DNA of 64,000 nt from an uncultured Candidatus Peribacteria bacterium. GTDB taxonomy: Bacteria > Patescibacteriota > Gracilibacteria > JAUYGZ01. Shown piece by piece: positions 47,771 to 53,272 of this stretch. The position numbers and the translations under genes were made by a program. How positions within the stretch are numbered: the first letter of the stretch is position 1; every line of letters begins with the position of its first letter. Below the pieces are notes generated by a model. That model saw only the letters and a list, made by a program, of their open reading frames with translations, was not told the origin of the DNA and ran no database searches. The stretch lies in the NCBI GenBank assembly GCA_964352145.1, contig CAYGQA010000001.1, forward strand, positions 152,617-216,616. The letters run 5' to 3'.

Positions 47771-48214
47771 ATGAAAATTTTAAGTACCAACAAAAAGGCC
47801 AAATTTGATTACGAAATCGTCGAAGAATACTCGGCTGGTATTAAGCTAGAAGGACGAGAAATCAAATCGCTACGCAATCAAAAACCCGCTTTTGCAGGGA
47901 GTTATGTCACGATCAGCAATGGAAAACCTATGCTCCATGATCTGAATATCCCTCGATATAAGCACGACCCTTCTCCAGAATATGATCCAAAGAGGGAACG
48001 TCTGCTTCTTTTGAAGCAATCAGAAATCAACCGTATCCAAGGAAAACTCAAAGAACAGGGAGTGACTGTGGTACCCATCGCGATCGGACTTGAGCGGCAA
48101 TGGGCCAAGGTGACGATAGGTATCGTCCGTGGTAAAAAGCAGCATGACAAAAGACAGACCATCCGTGACCGTGAAGATAAGCGAAAAATGCAACGAGTGA
48201 TGAAGCAATATTAA
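47771..48214 (+). CDS. smpB: SsrA-binding protein SmpB
   Basis: NKKAKFDYEI, GIKLEGREIKSLR and a basic C-terminal tail KKQHDKRQTIRDREDKRKM. Confidence 0.9.
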   Translation: MKILSTNKKAKFDYEIVEEYSAGIKLEGREIKSLRNQKPAFAGSYVTISNGKPMLHDLNIPRYKHDPSPEYDPKRERLLLLKQSEINRIQGKLKEQGVTVVPIAIGLERQWAKVTIGIVRGKKQHDKRQTIRDREDKRKMQRVMKQY

Positions 48215-48246: not shown

Positions 48247-48423
48247 ATGGGCAAAAAAGAAAAACAATTTTATCTTTGGTGGAGAGATCGTGTCTCTCTT
48301 TCAGAGAAATTAAGAATAATGTCAATTGAAAGCTCTGTAGTGATTAAAATGATGCAAACTGTTGATATTTTTTTAATTGATCCTGGTAAAAACCTCCCTG
48401 AAAAATTCAATACTTTTCACTGA
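48247..48423 (+). CDS. possible small protein (58 aa)
   Basis: ATG 48247 is preceded by AAGGAG at -13 to -8, one of the very few canonical SD sequences I saw in the window. Encodes MGKKEKQFYLWWRDRVSLSEK.... Below the track cutoff. Confidence 0.35.
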   Translation: MGKKEKQFYLWWRDRVSLSEKLRIMSIESSVVIKMMQTVDIFLIDPGKNLPEKFNTFH

Positions 48424-48497
48424 CTAAAGTAATAAAGAAAAATCTCATACTGCTTTTTTAGATTATCTTAAGCCTTACAAAAGCTCAGTCAATCTAA

Positions 48498-48545
48498 GCC
48501 CTTCTCTTGAGGCAAGAGAGGAAAGCCTTTAGGCAGGGTGAGTTC
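48498..48545. repeat. CTCACC-hairpin repeat family, solo copy (inverted orientation)
   Basis: The reverse complement gaactcaccctgcctaaaggctttcctctcttgcctcaagagaagggc matches the first ~26 nt of the 32298 copy at all but 2 positions. Confidence 0.6.
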
Positions 48546-48601
48546 ATCAGCGGCGAAGACGATCCACAAATAAGCTCAACTATTTTTAAAATAGTAAAAT
48601 T

Positions 48602-48680
48602 GTGCCTCGCTACCACACAGACCTGAGTCCCTACGAGGGATACAGTGAAGTATGGACAGCGAGGCGATGCTCTCTGCTAG
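48602..48680 (-). terminator. cassette 3' hairpin H1 (conserved stem, U-rich tail), end of array
   Basis: Minus strand GCCUCGCUG-U-CCAUAC...GUGUGG-UAGCGAGGC with an internal UCCC-UCGUA-GGGA hairpin, followed by AAUUUUACUAUUUU. The G-U pairs work only on the minus strand. Confidence 0.55.
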
Positions 48681-49273
48681 TTTTCGATGTTTGCCATTTT
48701 TGAATTTACAATTCTTCTTAAACGTATAAATAAAGAGGCAAATTTTGGCATTAAATCCTCCTTATTTTCGGCTGCTAATTCTCTATCGAGAAAACTTTTT
48801 GCTATGGTTAGAAGAGCAAGTGAATCTACAAAACCTAGGTAATATTTGTAGAGAAAATCATCCATATCCTCAATCTCTTTCTGTGAGAGATCTTTAGGAT
48901 TTAGCATTGCGTTCTGTATCACTTCTAAACTAACTTTCTTTTTTTCTTCTTTTTTTTCTCGAGCTTCTGCTTCTTCATCGAGAACTTTTTGAGCCTCCTT
49001 AATCAAAAGTTTTTTTAAATTAGTTTCAATTTCGGAGTTTGGAACTAATCCTTTTTTTTCTTCATCTGCTTCTACAACCAATTCTGAATTATAATCCATT
49101 ACATAATATGTAAAGTTTTTTTCCAAAGGAATTTCCGAAGAATATTTTTGAAGGAGCTCCTTGAAGGGTTTTGTTTTTTCAGTACTTAAACTATCCCCTC
49201 TAGTAAGAGCCTCTAAACTCAGTCCGGACTCTTCTTTTCTTGAAAAAGAGATTTCTAAAATTATTGGATTCAT
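48677..49273 (-). CDS. cassette A protein (hypothetical, 198 aa)
   Basis: ORF body directly 3' of conserved leader L1. Start placed at AUG 49271-49273, because the track start at 49318 lies inside the leader. Confidence 0.6.
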   Translation of the reverse strand: MNPIILEISFSRKEESGLSLEALTRGDSLSTEKTKPFKELLQKYSSEIPLEKNFTYYVMDYNSELVVEADEEKKGLVPNSEIETNLKKLLIKEAQKVLDEEAEAREKKEEKKKVSLEVIQNAMLNPKDLSQKEIEDMDDFLYKYYLGFVDSLALLTIAKSFLDRELAAENKEDLMPKFASLFIRLRRIVNSKMANIEN

Positions 49274-49280
49274 CACATTA

Positions 49281-49396
49281 CCAACCAGCAGAGAGCGAAC
49301 TCCCTGCGGCCTTTTCATATATATTTTTTACAAATGAATACCCAAAGCAGAAGCTTTGAATGAGGCTCCACACGGAGTTCTCTGAATACTGATTGG
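49281..49396 (-). ncRNA. conserved structured cassette leader L1
   Basis: Closing helices CCAAUCAG/CUGGUUGG, CAGAG/CUCUG, AACUCC/GGAGUU and UGUGG/CCGCA, with apical hairpin CAAAGC-UUCU-GCUUUG. Nearly identical to L2-L4. Confidence 0.55.
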
Positions 49397-49425
49397 TTCG
49401 ATTTTTCAAGGTTCTTTAAAAATGC

Positions 49426-49501
49426 GTGCCTCGCTGCCATACCGGTCTGGCTCCCACGAAGGGAGGAGATATGGTCAACGAGGCGTGGCCTCTGCTGTTA
49501 G
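49426..49501 (-). terminator. cassette 3' hairpin H2
   Basis: GCCUCGUUG-A-CCAUA...UAUGG-CAGCGAGGC with internal CUCCC-UUCGU-GGGAG, followed by GCAUUUUUAAAG. Overlaps the cassette B stop codon. Confidence 0.5.
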
Positions 49502-50091
49502 TCGTCTTTCTTGAGCATAATTCTTATCAAATCAAGTTGTGCTGCTACTTGATTGTGAAGAGTAAGATCCTTGTCTTCTGTGCAGTCTCCATATTCTTTC
49601 ATTTCATCAAGATCTTTTTCAATCTGAACTGCGACGGGCAATATCCTGAGGATATCTGTAAGTAAGTCAGGTATATTTACCCCATCTGTTTTATCTCTCA
49701 AAGAGAAATTCACTATGTCACTTATTATGTCTTCCATTCTTTTACTAGTTTCTTTTATCTCTTGATCTTCCAAGTCTGATAGAATTGTTTTCGTAGTGTT
49801 TACGAGAAAAGCACCCAAATCTTTGAGAAAATCATCAGATAAATTTCCTCCTTGAGTTGCTTTTTCAGAACTCAAAAGACCTGAATCACTTGAGTAAACA
49901 AGAAAATCAAACTCTATTTCTGCAGGAATGTTATCCTTGTTTTGACAGAGAAAATGCTGGAATATATTTAGTTTTGCAGGATTTAACACTTCTTTTTCTT
50001 TGATGGTTAAGCTCACCATCATTCCTTTTTCTACTTTCTTACAGAAGCAAAGCCTTAAAACCTCTTCAGATGAATTTCCGCGTACTACCAT
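49498..50091 (-). CDS. cassette B protein (hypothetical, 197 aa)
   Basis: ORF body 3' of leader L2. Start placed at AUG 50089-50091. Ends ...KKDD, followed by UAACAGCAGAGG. Confidence 0.6.
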   Translation of the reverse strand: MVVRGNSSEEVLRLCFCKKVEKGMMVSLTIKEKEVLNPAKLNIFQHFLCQNKDNIPAEIEFDFLVYSSDSGLLSSEKATQGGNLSDDFLKDLGAFLVNTTKTILSDLEDQEIKETSKRMEDIISDIVNFSLRDKTDGVNIPDLLTDILRILPVAVQIEKDLDEMKEYGDCTEDKDLTLHNQVAAQLDLIRIMLKKDD

Positions 50092-50098
50092 CACATCA

Positions 50099-50214
50099 CC
50101 AACCAGCAGAGAGCGAACTCCCTGCGGCCCTTTCATATATATTTTTTACAAATGAATACCCAAAGCCGAAGCTTTGAATGAGGCTCCACACGGAGTTCTC
50201 TGAATACTGATTGG
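50099..50214 (-). ncRNA. conserved structured cassette leader L2
   Basis: Same helices as L1. The apical hairpin is CAAAGC-UUCG-GCUUUG. Confidence 0.55.
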
Positions 50215-50243
50215 CCCGTTTTTTCAAGGTTCTTAATAAAGTT

Positions 50244-50320
50244 GTGCCATCGCTGCCATATCGGTTCTTCTCCCTCGGAGGGAGGAGATATGGACAGCGA
50301 GGCGATGCCTCTGCTGTTAG
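50244..50320 (-). terminator. cassette 3' hairpin H3
   Basis: GCCUCGCUG-U-CCAUAUC...GAUAUGG-CAGCGAUGGC with internal CUCCC-UCCGA-GGGAG, followed by AACUUUAUUAAG. Overlaps the cassette C stop codon. Confidence 0.5.
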
Positions 50321-50934
50321 TCGTCTTGACTTAAAAGTTCTCTAAGCTCCTGAATAAGCTTCTTTGTTTTTGAAAGAGTCGGAATTTCGGAGATGAATTT
50401 TTTCTCATCTGCATCTAACTTACCTGTTACATCTTTCAAGTCACAAAAAAGAGACTCCGCTCTAAGTGCATTATCAATTTCTGCTAAACAAGTCTTCAAT
50501 TTGTCTGCAAAAGCACAATCAAGAGCCTCAATATCTAAAACACTCACCCCTCTTAACTTCTTCGTAGCTTTTTCAAGATTTACTTCTTTTTCATCAAGAC
50601 GCTGAAGTAAATTTGAAGCTAAAGTGAGCATACGCCCACGAAGTCTTTTGCAAAATTTTGAAGCAGACTTTATGCTGCCTTCGATTTTTCTAAAAGACAA
50701 AGCCTCTGTGTCGAGTACTACCTCAAAACTGTATATCTCCTCGGATTCAAACTCTTCTTTGTTCTTGTTTATGAACGCTTCCATGCGTTCCAAGCTGGTT
50801 TCAATAAGCTCTTTCTCTTTACAAGAAAAAGTTACTTCTACGTTCCTTGAGCCTTTTCTTCTGAAAAAAGATACATGAAGTACTTGATCGTCTTCATAAA
50901 GCTGTCCTTCAGAAAAATCTCCAATTACTACCAT
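50317..50934 (-). CDS. cassette C protein (hypothetical, 205 aa)
   Basis: ORF body 3' of leader L3. Start placed at AUG 50932-50934. The 263-aa track ORF reads through the leader and promoter. Ends ...SQDD, followed by UAACAGCAGAGG. Confidence 0.6.
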   Translation of the reverse strand: MVVIGDFSEGQLYEDDQVLHVSFFRRKGSRNVEVTFSCKEKELIETSLERMEAFINKNKEEFESEEIYSFEVVLDTEALSFRKIEGSIKSASKFCKRLRGRMLTLASNLLQRLDEKEVNLEKATKKLRGVSVLDIEALDCAFADKLKTCLAEIDNALRAESLFCDLKDVTGKLDADEKKFISEIPTLSKTKKLIQELRELLSQDD

Positions 50935-50941
50935 CACATTA

Positions 50942-51056
50942 CCAACCAGCAGAGAGCGAACTCCCTGTGGCCCTTCATACGCATAACTTACAAATGAATA
51001 CCCAAAGTCGAAACTTTGAGTGAGGCTCCACACGGAGTTCTCTGAATACTGATTGG
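50942..51056 (-). ncRNA. conserved structured cassette leader L3
   Basis: Same helices as L1. The apical hairpin CAAAGU-UUCG-ACUUUG shows a compensatory C-G to U-A change. CCACA replaces CCGCA, turning a U-G pair into U-A. Confidence 0.55.
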
Positions 51057-51089
51057 TTCGATTTTTCAAAGTACACCAAAAGAGTGCAC

Positions 51090-51118
51090 AGTTTACTTTA
51101 CATCTCATATTATGTCAA
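51090..51118 (-). promoter_or_regulatory. cassette promoter P2 (TTGACA-17-TAAACT)
   Basis: Minus strand: TTGACA (51118-51113), 17-nt spacer, TAAACT (51095-51090). The block is shared with P1. Confidence 0.55.
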
Positions 51119-51142
51119 TAATTTCTGACATTATAAAAAGTT

Positions 51143-51217
51143 GTGCGTCGCTGCCATACGTTCGATTCCCTACGAGGGAGGAGGTATGGACAGCGAGGCA
51201 TGTGCCTCTGCTGTTAA
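51143..51217 (-). terminator. cassette 3' hairpin H4
   Basis: GCCUCGCUG-U-CCAUACC...ACGUAUGG-CAGCGACGC with internal UCCC-UCGUA-GGGA, followed by AACUUUUUAUAAUG. Confidence 0.5.
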
Positions 51218-51245
51218 TTTAAGTTCTCTTCTTTGCTTGATCAAA

Positions 51246-51551
51246 CTACTGATTCATTCTCATTCCAAGGTTGATGGCATGCGCATACAGTTGATGCAGA
51301 ATATCAGACGACATACTCAAAAGATTCTCGTTTGGTTTTACAGCAATTCCACCATCATGAGGTTCATATACCTCAATACTGATTACTTTCCCTATAGGAA
51401 AGTTCTCAATATTCTGTTCGATATACTCCACTAAAAATTTTTGAACTTCTTTTAAAGAATCTGGAATCTCCTGTGAGAAGTTGATATCAAATTCTTTGGA
51501 AGATTTTTTTCTGAGAATCTCAATTCGGATGAGTTCTTTTTTAGTCCCCAT
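51246..51551 (-). CDS. cassette D protein (hypothetical, 101 aa; N-domain only)
   Basis: ORF body 3' of leader L4. Start placed at AUG 51549-51551, because the track start at 51563 is a TTG inside the leader helix. Confidence 0.6.
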   Translation of the reverse strand: MGTKKELIRIEILRKKSSKEFDINFSQEIPDSLKEVQKFLVEYIEQNIENFPIGKVISIEVYEPHDGGIAVKPNENLLSMSSDILHQLYAHAINLGMRMNQ

Positions 51552-51559
51552 TCTTTTTA

Positions 51560-51681
51560 CCAACCAGCAGAGAGCGAACTCCCTGCGGCCCTTTCTTTAC
51601 ACTTGTTTCTAAAAACAACATAAAACCCAAAGCAGAAGCTTTGAATGAGGCTCCACACGGAGTTCTCTGAATACTGATTGG
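51560..51681 (-). ncRNA. conserved structured cassette leader L4
   Basis: Same closing helices and apical hairpin as L1. The A/U linker is replaced by a small extra hairpin, UUGUUU-UUAG-AAACAA. Confidence 0.55.
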
Positions 51682-51714
51682 TTCGATTTTTCAAAGTACA
51701 CCAAAAGAGTGCAC

Positions 51715-51743
51715 AGTTTACTTTACATTTATAATTCTGTCAA
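51715..51743 (-). promoter_or_regulatory. cassette promoter P1 (TTGACA-17-TAAACT)
   Basis: Minus strand: TTGACA (51743-51738), 17-nt spacer, TAAACT (51720-51715). It lies 31 nt downstream of the asnS stop. Confidence 0.55.
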
Positions 51744-51773
51744 CAATCTCTGACATTTAATCTGAAAAATGTC

Positions 51774-53063
51774 TTAAGGAGCCAGACGGTTCATAAGACG
51801 AGGGAAGGGGATGGTCTCTCTGACATGCTTCAATCCGCACATCCATCCGACGATACGCTCGAGTCCATAACCAAATCCAGAGTGAGGAACTGATCCGTAT
51901 CGACGTAAGTCCATATACCATTCAAGGCCTTTTTCAGGGACATTATGCTCAGACATCCATTTTTTCATGAGCTCTAGATCATCTTCTCGTTGTGAACCTC
52001 CGATGATTTCTCCGTATCCTTCAGGAGCAAGAAGATCGACACAGAGACAATTTTGTTCATCTTCAGTTCTCTTCATGTAGAAGGCTTTTACCTTCGCTGG
52101 GTAATGAGTGACGAAGATTGGTTGGTCATATTTTTTTGTCAGGATAGTCTCATCATCACCTCCAAGGTCTCTATCAGCGGTGATATCAGAGCCCATTGAT
52201 TGCAGCTCAGCGACTGCCTCAGCGTGAGTCATACGTTTGAAAGGACCTTTGATCTTTTTCAGTGGCTCGAGATCTCTTTCGAGAGTGAGCAGTTCTTTTT
52301 CTTTATTTTCCAAGACTCTTTTGATGACATGCAACATGAGGGATTCTTGGATATCGATGATTCCTTCGAGGTCACAGAAGGTAGCCTCAGCATCCATCAT
52401 CCAAAACTCTGTCAGGTGACGTCTTGTCTTTGATTTCTCTGAACGAAATACTGGTCCAAAATCAAAACCACGTCCACAACTCATCACGGCTGCCTCAAGG
52501 TAGAGTTGTCCAGATTGAGCGAGATAAGCTTGTCCTTCGTCGAAGTATTCCATTTCAAAGAGTTCTGTTGAACCTTCACAGGCATTATTCGTCATGATCG
52601 GTGTATCGACTTTCATAAAGCCGTTTGTATGCATCCATTCGAAGGTGGCTCGGATGACTTCGTCACGGACTCTTTGTACTGCGAGTTGTTTTTGAGAGCG
52701 AAGCCAGAGATGTCTATTGTCGAGGAGGAACTCCGGACCATGTTCTTTTTTTCCAATTGGGTATTCTTCCGCTATTTGGATGATTTCTATATCAGAAACC
52801 TGTATTTCAAACACATCCTCTTTTTTTGGATGTTGAGAGATGGTACCAGTCACTCGTACAGATGATTCGATAGTCAGTTGTTCTGCTTTTTCCATGACTT
52901 CTGGAGCGACTGCAGAAGCCTCTACGACTCCTTGCATTACCCCGGTCCCATCACGTAGCTGAAGGAAGGCAATCTTCCCAGACCCTCGCTTGTTGTACAT
53001 CCATCCTTGGATAGTGACCGTTTGGTCGACGAAATCTTTAGCATCTTTAATGAAAAAACTCAT
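51774..53063 (-). CDS. asnS: asparaginyl-tRNA synthetase
   Basis: Class IIb enzyme with an OB-fold N-terminus, FRSEKSKTRRHLTEFWMMDAE and GFGYGLERIV. Length is typical of AsnRS. Start set at ATG 53061-53063, because the track start is a TTG. Confidence 0.85.
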   Translation of the reverse strand: MSFFIKDAKDFVDQTVTIQGWMYNKRGSGKIAFLQLRDGTGVMQGVVEASAVAPEVMEKAEQLTIESSVRVTGTISQHPKKEDVFEIQVSDIEIIQIAEEYPIGKKEHGPEFLLDNRHLWLRSQKQLAVQRVRDEVIRATFEWMHTNGFMKVDTPIMTNNACEGSTELFEMEYFDEGQAYLAQSGQLYLEAAVMSCGRGFDFGPVFRSEKSKTRRHLTEFWMMDAEATFCDLEGIIDIQESLMLHVIKRVLENKEKELLTLERDLEPLKKIKGPFKRMTHAEAVAELQSMGSDITADRDLGGDDETILTKKYDQPIFVTHYPAKVKAFYMKRTEDEQNCLCVDLLAPEGYGEIIGGSQREDDLELMKKWMSEHNVPEKGLEWYMDLRRYGSVPHSGFGYGLERIVGWMCGLKHVRETIPFPRLMNRLAP

Positions 53064-53272
53064 GGAAAACAATAAAAAAAACAGTGATAGCAGTATAATG
53101 GAGCCTTCATAAATACCAAAAGAGAATGCGTCGTTTTATTACGGTGACAAAGTAAACTCCTCTAAAGATTCTTGCCAAAGATGAAGTTCAGATGAAGACT
53201 ATAGATCATTTTATTGAAGACCTTGAGAGGCAGGCGTAGGATAAATATCCATTATGAATAAACACAGGAATC

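Follow-up and report, generated by a model that had tools for sequence, protein, structure and literature searches.

The hairpin-ended 3′ element of orphan-gene cassettes in a Peribacteria genome looks like message-level control rather than an integron-like swapping site

The element that closes each of four tandem orphan-gene cassettes in a Candidatus Peribacteria genome looks like a means of message-level control rather than an integron-like site for swapping DNA. The window analysed here is a stretch of 64,000 nucleotides from a 1.63-Mb Patescibacteria MAG of 41% GC. Within it, four minus-strand cassettes (D, C, B and A) sit between asnS (51774-53072, minus) and smpB (47771-48214, plus), and each runs from a ~140-nt rod-like leader through a variable ORF to a short box and a long hairpin. 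What is new is that this frame occurs in four of the nine genomes of the order, as eight cassettes, that the hairpin covaries as a structure of the sense strand, and that in seven of the eight the box is the best complement of the leader. Only a tRNA reaches the Rfam gathering score in the 64-kb window, a permissive Rfam search (E<=10) of positions 48300-51900 gives no meaningful match, and a search of the 1.63-Mb host genome finds no cassette elements elsewhere.

The cassettes differ in how they could be transcribed. A promoter-like TTGACA-17-TAAACT followed by a small 5′ stem-loop precedes leaders D and C only, at 51715-51743 and, as a second copy, at 51090-51118 (both minus). The C/B and B/A junctions (50224-50245 and 49406-49427) lack this ~60-nt block of promoter and stem-loop (compare 51066-51140, minus), so that genes B and A are either expressed by read-through from C or silent. 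No convincing antisense promoter was found in the inter-ORF blocks. As for base composition, ORFs A-D (48677-51551) have 32-36% GC (GC3 24-35%) against 42-45% in the adjacent housekeeping genes, and a nearby sigma-factor gene has a GC content about as low as theirs. Logan contigs (runs ERR3534977-ERR3534995), independently assembled from the same organism and carrying an identical smpB or asnS, stop exactly at the repeated leader/promoter blocks; these repeats break short-read assemblies, and the order of the four cassettes is therefore known from the MAG assembly alone.

A covariance model of the leader, run on the class (401 genomes) and then, with relaxed filters, on the order (nine genomes), matches eight leaders in four genomes, which represent three genera of one family and four kinds of locus. 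Four leaders lie in the host window, one in the same-genus genome G001 (between a purQ-like gene and a peroxiredoxin), two in G004 (at the asnS/smpB site and at an ABC transporter/helicase site) and one in G005 (after hflX). Of the eight cassettes known from these four genomes, four are recent copies of one another. A weak match to the leader model in G164 (25 bits) was treated as chance. A scan of the genome collection returned only the same-genus MAG, and a first exact-pattern scan of metagenome contigs returned nothing; the 20 matches of a second such scan were dismissed as chance, none of them fitting the leader model even with the filters off. The asnS/smpB site holds no cassette in G003, none in G005, where an unrelated gene is present, one in G004 and four in the host. 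The first-pass annotation had proposed a comparison of relatives at the inverted-repeat junctions: cassette content does vary (0, 0, 1, 4), but the unit that varies is the whole cassette and not the ORF between inverted repeats, which indicates that gain, loss or duplication affects everything from promoter to hairpin. In G004 the hairpin lies directly against the smpB stop codon. Where single cassettes stand at unrelated loci, they retain leader, box and a hairpin, and the partner of the box is thus the cassette's own leader. All eight assembled cassettes have one orientation relative to their leaders. The unrelated gene at the G005 site (L059, G005:C2, 3176-3664) is a 162-aa ORF, co-directional with smpB.

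The framed genes are orphans. Genes D (51246-51551, 101 aa), C (50317-50934, 205 aa), B (49498-50091, 197 aa) and A (48677-49273, 198 aa), all on the minus strand, have no Pfam match, and in a profile search of 1.84 billion representative proteins the four products match only themselves. All-against-all BLASTP and phmmer comparison of the eight cassette proteins, which are hydrophilic and 101-265 aa long, reveals weak similarity among B, C and D and nothing else. The AlphaFold model of protein A has a pLDDT of 76 overall and of 84-94 across its first 100 residues, and a Foldseek search of this model against the PDB gives nothing at E<=0.001. By eye, all eight proteins show an N-terminal beta-beta-alpha-beta-beta pattern, with which model A agrees. 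This common pattern points to one very fast-evolving family, and the eight proteins are probably such a family rather than unrelated captured genes.

The 3′ hairpin was initially described as conserved, unusually long, bulged and terminator-like; its coordinates are correct, and all four copies fold as claimed. That of cassette C (50246-50303, minus) comprises a 9-bp outer stem, a bulged U, a 6-bp inner stem and a CCC/GGG apex, with a folding energy of -36.8 kcal/mol (z -4.8), and is followed by a U-rich run at 50232-50240 (minus). The hairpins of cassettes D (51145-51199), B (49428-49484) and A (48604-48665), also minus, share this plan, so that all four are 55-62 nt long with a 9-bp outer stem, one bulged base, a 6-bp inner stem, a small CCC-loop-GGG apex and a displaced U-run; their energies range from -29 to -39 kcal/mol (z = -3.0 to -5.1 against shuffles). 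In a canonical intrinsic terminator, a GC-rich stem-loop is followed by a U-run within 0-2 nt. Here the U-run starts 4-5 nt past the main stem in all four copies, and this displacement is why a consensus terminator scan skips them.

A covariance model of box plus hairpin matches the four window copies and one copy in another genus (G004), and the absence of any other copy from the family implies that the long hairpin is not the general terminator of the lineage. The G004 copy belongs to the syntenic cassette at asnS/smpB; it keeps the bulge and the inner CCAUA/UAUGG, and its outer arms are changed (ACACUUGCG/CGUAGGUGU). In the alignment of the five hairpins, 94.9% of cells are paired and five pairs are changed on both sides, a number reached by 0 of 500 shuffles, and the main stem contains seven G.U cells and no A.C cell. 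Five compensatory pairs, together with seven G.U against zero A.C, identify the sense strand as the one that folds. At the level of alignment, this shows a hairpin predicted to fold in the sense transcript and kept, with compensatory changes, between two genera at asnS/smpB. All five long hairpins, in both genera, have kept the single bulged base. As single-stranded DNA, both strands of the hairpin fold about equally well, with no strand preference in the energies. The remaining cassettes end differently: G004 locus 2 and G005 in canonical short terminators, G001 in a different long hairpin. The empty site of G003 (L060, G003:C7, 2957-3078) has a ~75-nt compound bidirectional terminator (AAAAAAACUCACCCCC...GGGGGGGUGAGUUUUUUU, with an inner CCC..GGG hairpin), whose architecture resembles that of the cassette hairpin and which may be its evolutionary source.

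At the other end of each cassette, the rod-like leader presents a strand to which the box is complementary. Leader A spans 49268-49405, with the 3′ strand CUCUGCUGGUU, the partner of the box, at 49283-49293; leader B spans 50086-50223 (3′ strand 50101-50111), leader C 50929-51065 (50944-50954) and leader D 51547-51690 (51562-51572), all on the minus strand. In the rod alignment, 95.4% of cells are paired, with 14 compensatory pairs and many G.U, and the leader model gives the sense strand 148-164 bits, compared with 23-29 for the antisense. Sequence identity between leaders A and B is 93%, loops included, and the box target is identical in all four window leaders. Most cassette leaders are devoid of a Shine-Dalgarno sequence. 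Each leader also contains an apical hairpin (CAAAGCUUCUGCUUUGGGU then AUUCAUUUGU; 49340-49361, 50158-50179, 51000-51021 and 51625-51646, minus) that was scored as terminator-like and that, in leader C, carries a compensatory C-G to U-A change. A TTG-started frame of 43-45 codons runs across leaders A, B and D (49278-49409, 50096-50227 and 51557-51694, minus) and stops at a UAA 4-7 nt ahead of the main start. This upstream frame was rejected as probably not coding: a 1-nt indel breaks it in leader C, and it meets an early stop in G001.

The four window cassettes end in a box, (UA)ACAGCAGAG or UAGCAGAGAGC, that is complementary to the leader 3′ strand CUCUGCUGGUU. Box C (AACAGCAGAG, 50309-50318, minus) overlaps the stop TAA at 50319-50317, box B (49490-49499, minus) the stop TAA at 49498-49500, and box A (AACUAGCAGAGAGC, 48669-48682, minus) the stop TAG at 48677-48679. 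The claim that every ORF ends in or just before this conserved string thus holds for A, B and C but not for D, which stops (51246-51248) 31 nt ahead of its box (51206-51215, minus). The string GCCTCGCTG has just two further occurrences in the 1.63-Mb genome. Likewise, the 10-11-nt complementarity with the leader that had been noticed is real but longer in the host genome, at 14-15 bp: cassettes B-D can form a 15-bp helix with two 1-nt bulges, and cassette A a continuous helix of 14 bp (13 Watson-Crick pairs and one U.G). Across the seven boxed cassettes, the helix has 8-13 nt of perfect pairing and 13-15 bp when bulges are allowed.

In seven of the eight cassettes, the longest Watson-Crick complement that the downstream mRNA offers to the leader 3′ strand is the box, at the end of the ORF and immediately before the hairpin; only the G005 cassette lacks a box. 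The perfect complement measures 8 nt in winD, winC and winB, a length reached by 44, 55 and 48 of 500 shuffles, respectively, 10 nt in winA (2/500) and in G001 (3/500), and 13 nt in both G004_1 and G004_2 (0/500 each). A match of 8 nt is by itself unremarkable, as ~10% of shuffles attain it. The two G004 cassettes lengthen the invariant core with bases that match their own leader (AAACC/GGUUU versus UGACC/GGUCA), so that each G004 box pairs over 13 nt with its own leader versus 11 nt with that of the other cassette. Covariation of the box:leader helix is not significant (three compensatory pairs, equalled in 86 of 500 shuffles; score reached by 40 of 500), and its 7-bp core never varies among boxed cassettes. 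The lack of variation in CUCUCUGCUGG fits a strand that has two partners to serve.

Could the hairpin be a plain terminator caught in a recent tandem duplication? It would then derive from the bidirectional terminator between the convergent genes asnS and smpB, the likeness of the flanks would reflect duplication or gene conversion, and the complementarity of the box would be functionless. The empty-site terminator of G003 shares outer arms and a CCC..GGG apex with the cassette hairpins, the hairpin adjoins the smpB stop in G004, and ordinary short terminators end G004 locus 2 and G005; the near-identity of leaders A and B, in loops as well as stems, fits homogenisation, and the non-significant covariation of the box helix points the same way. 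Against this, three genera retain a box where the ORF ends, at unrelated loci too, and its complementarity is extended in a cassette-specific manner that twice yields 13 perfect nucleotides, never reached in 500 shuffles. The U-run stands 4-5 nt off the stem, the bulge holds the same position across genera, and with B and A promoterless, hairpins C and B are not efficient terminators unless B and A are silent. On balance, we regard a mere terminator as an unlikely account, second among the alternatives, which we rank as RNA processing or a trans-acting sRNA, then a plain terminator, then a DNA recombination site.

The reading that we prefer, in which the box acts on the leader of the message, is illustrated by the way the two ends compete. 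The box copies the 5′ strand of the rod minus its 4-nt internal loop; lacking this loop, it can form a continuous helix with CUCUCUGCUGG and displace the 5′ strand of the rod. Folding of inter-ORF blocks and of full mRNAs agrees with the earlier proposal that CUCUGCUGG can pair with the box or with the 5′ strand of its own leader, but not with both at once. Forced box:leader pairing costs 0-5 kcal/mol in full-length mRNAs and 0-2 kcal/mol between box(n) and leader(n+1) in inter-ORF blocks, and the pairing is already part of the minimum free energy structure in winA, in G004_1 (full mRNA) and in block B_A. The rod-closed and box-paired folds, which differ by 0-5 kcal/mol, are hence nearly isoenergetic. 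Six of the seven boxes either contain the stop codon or are separated from it by no more than about 10 nt (1-9 nt), and the start codon is 9-23 nt past the leader strand, a distance that shrinks to 6 nt should cassettes A-C start at their in-frame GUG. Given these positions, the box helix would close the ORF into a loop with stop beside start. A further pairing was considered in the host genome, where the boxes CAGCAGAGGC can pair, in addition, with the 5′ arm GCCUCGCUG of the hairpin that follows (50295-50318, 51191-51215, 49476-49499 and 48657-48678, minus). The resulting early hairpin (-7 to -16 kcal/mol) excludes the outer stem of the long hairpin and resembles an anti-terminator open to disruption by a terminating ribosome; being absent in G001 and G004, it was rejected as part of a conserved mechanism.

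The same arrangement could also be read as a processing or trans-acting module, in which rod and hairpin are sites for RNase III or another nuclease that cuts the read-through RNA, or in which box and hairpin form a 3′-UTR sRNA whose seed, CAGCAGAG, pairs with sister leaders in trans. The usual layout of a 3′-UTR-derived sRNA is a seed directly 5′ of a stable hairpin with a U-rich tail, which the succession of box, hairpin and U tail matches. The host genome contains an RNase III gene, the target is identical in all four window leaders, and B and A must come from read-through transcripts. Yet the helices, interrupted by bulges or loops every 6-11 bp, are short for classical RNase III sites, and single-cassette genomes retain the box. 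Moreover, each G004 box matches its own leader better (13 vs 11 nt), a preference that favours pairing in cis. We therefore consider this module improbable, although it heads our alternatives.

The first-pass annotation had noted a likeness to integron attC logic. In a wider form of this reading, the element would be an attC-like, Xer-type or inversion site, whose bulged hairpin and inverted repeats, recognised as DNA, would allow a recombinase to insert, excise, invert or exchange cassettes at the CUCUGCUGG/CCAGCAGAG junctions. Several features do recall such a system: the number of cassettes at one locus differs among genera (none, none, one, four), homologous frames surround ORFs without detectable similarity at unrelated loci, the conserved extrahelical base is reminiscent of attC, both DNA strands fold about equally as single strands, and the genome encodes two Xer-like recombinases. 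IntI is normally encoded beside its array. These two, on contigs other than that of the window (C25 and C9), are the only tyrosine recombinases found by a genome-wide search, in keeping with the remark that no intI lies nearby; they score 146 and 193 bits against a TIGR02249 cut-off of 265, and the better match to the IntI profile aligns in two stretches that skip positions 179-232, the IntI-specific segment. The Xer-like recombinase on contig C9 (G000, C9:54962-55444), of 273 aa, scores best against archaeal-type XerA and integron-integrase subfamily models, below their cut-offs and without the IntI insertion. No serine recombinase or invertase was found in the host genome.

Neither R′′ (RYYYAAC) nor R′ (GTTRRRY) core sites occur at the ends of the hairpin, and the putative core was rightly noted to deviate from GTTRRRY: the two plus-strand ends read GTTAGTC and GTTGTGC, both of which depart from this consensus. 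Cassettes of integrons are promoterless and are read from a common Pc, whereas D and C carry their own promoters and every cassette its own ~140-nt leader; the G.U pairs are confined to the sense strand, and the unit of gain and loss is the whole cassette, not the inter-repeat segment. The repeat flanks differ between cassettes of one genome yet stay complementary within each, which fits intramolecular pairing better than recognition by one protein. Nor do the cassettes resemble an inverton, which combines inverted repeats with an invertase and occurs in both orientations, as there is no invertase and all eight share one orientation; an invertible promoter was rejected, single cassettes having the repeats around the ORF and not around the promoter. 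With no IntI, no cores, resident promoters, sense-only G.U and the whole cassette as the unit, the attC-like logic is not supported, and a DNA recombination site, last in our ranking, seems to us very improbable.

Based on the above data, we propose an RNA-level 3′ module, made of a terminator or stabiliser hairpin and of a 5′-3′ pairing switch read by the terminating ribosome, a mechanism to which we give an even chance of being right. The element would be the 3′ half of a self-contained frame that consists of promoter, 5′ stem-loop, rod-like leader, ORFan gene, box and hairpin. The hairpin may act as a leaky terminator, a 3′-end protector or both; leakiness is required by the lack of separate promoters for cassettes B and A. 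The conserved bulge of the hairpin might serve in recognition. The box would toggle the leader between a closed rod and a 5′-3′ paired state beside the start codon, and a terminating ribosome would decide the state of the leader by covering or melting the box. In this way the switch would report whether the ORF is translated, and translation could thereby govern the stability or processing of the mRNA, or re-initiation on it, in the manner of hbs and icaR. In cassette D, where the stop lies 31 nt ahead of the box, the ribosome-sensing step would be weakened. It counts against the switch that the local rod is a very stable structure and the first to form as the RNA is transcribed. The array of four may have arisen by tandem duplication of a single cassette, the state seen in G004; the coding parts would then have diverged until no longer recognisable, and the cassette flanks would have been maintained or homogenised.

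A further extension, which we think quite improbable, would make leader, box and hairpin a portable 'closed-loop' frame peculiar to Peribacteria, and perhaps a wider habit of Patescibacteria. The 13-15-bp helix would tie stop to start in the absence of a Shine-Dalgarno sequence and hand ribosomes back to the start, or on to that of the next cassette, and the flanks would serve as homology arms for duplicating, losing and exchanging hypervariable ORFans without an integrase.

The proposed switch has precedents in single genes. In Bacillus subtilis, the hbs mRNA forms a ~14-bp interaction between its 5′ and 3′ UTRs (PMC5737220). As predicted for the cassettes, a long-range helix joins a structured 5′ UTR to the 3′ end of the same mRNA and competes with a local structure; the hbs helix links the fate of the mRNA to ribosomes, the same link that we propose here (PMC5737220). 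In contrast to hbs, the cassette box overlaps or adjoins the stop codon and resembles one of the two strands of a long leader rod, and the frame is repeated around different ORFans; the sequences are not homologous. In Staphylococcus aureus icaR mRNA, a 3′-UTR motif pairs with the Shine-Dalgarno region of the 5′ UTR (PMC3868564). The cassettes share with icaR a short 3′ motif that can pair beside the start codon of its own message, in a duplex that could be a substrate of RNase III, but their target is not a Shine-Dalgarno sequence, and whereas the icaR motif is buried far inside a long 3′ UTR, theirs is at the stop codon.

Fold-back (fbi/tac) pairing is also a property of type I toxin mRNAs such as hok and aapA1, which encode small hydrophobic toxins and are accompanied by an antisense RNA. 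With these the cassettes have in common a predicted 5′-3′ pairing and two mutually exclusive folds of the full-length mRNA; in contrast, the cassette ORFs are hydrophilic and of 101-265 aa, and no antisense partner is seen. The likeness to integron cassettes lies in tandem variable ORFs, conserved imperfect hairpins with an extrahelical base and content that varies between relatives, and the differences in the lack of IntI and cores, the presence of promoters and long leaders, a conserved block that is mostly 5′ UTR and strand-specific G.U pairs that speak for RNA. An attC site has two or three extrahelical bases and an unpaired central spacer, whereas the cassette hairpin has one extrahelical base. 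Phage 'morons' are autonomous units of promoter, ORF and terminator, and the cassettes resemble them as self-contained units between conserved genes, present or absent among relatives, but differ in their shared homologous structured leader, in their 5′-3′ complementarity and in their chromosomal location in a small Patescibacteria genome.

To our knowledge, functional 5′-3′ communication in bacterial mRNAs comprises only a handful of single-gene cases. Here the same 5′-3′ arrangement, which has no Rfam match, frames fast-evolving orphan genes in an uncultured lineage with small genomes, where it is found in several genera. Should the switch prove real, one candidate 'integrase-less integron' would be struck off the list, and the cassettes would provide a compact and testable case of an mRNA that monitors whether it is being translated, which may help to explain how Patescibacteria manage the expression and turnover of many lineage-specific genes.
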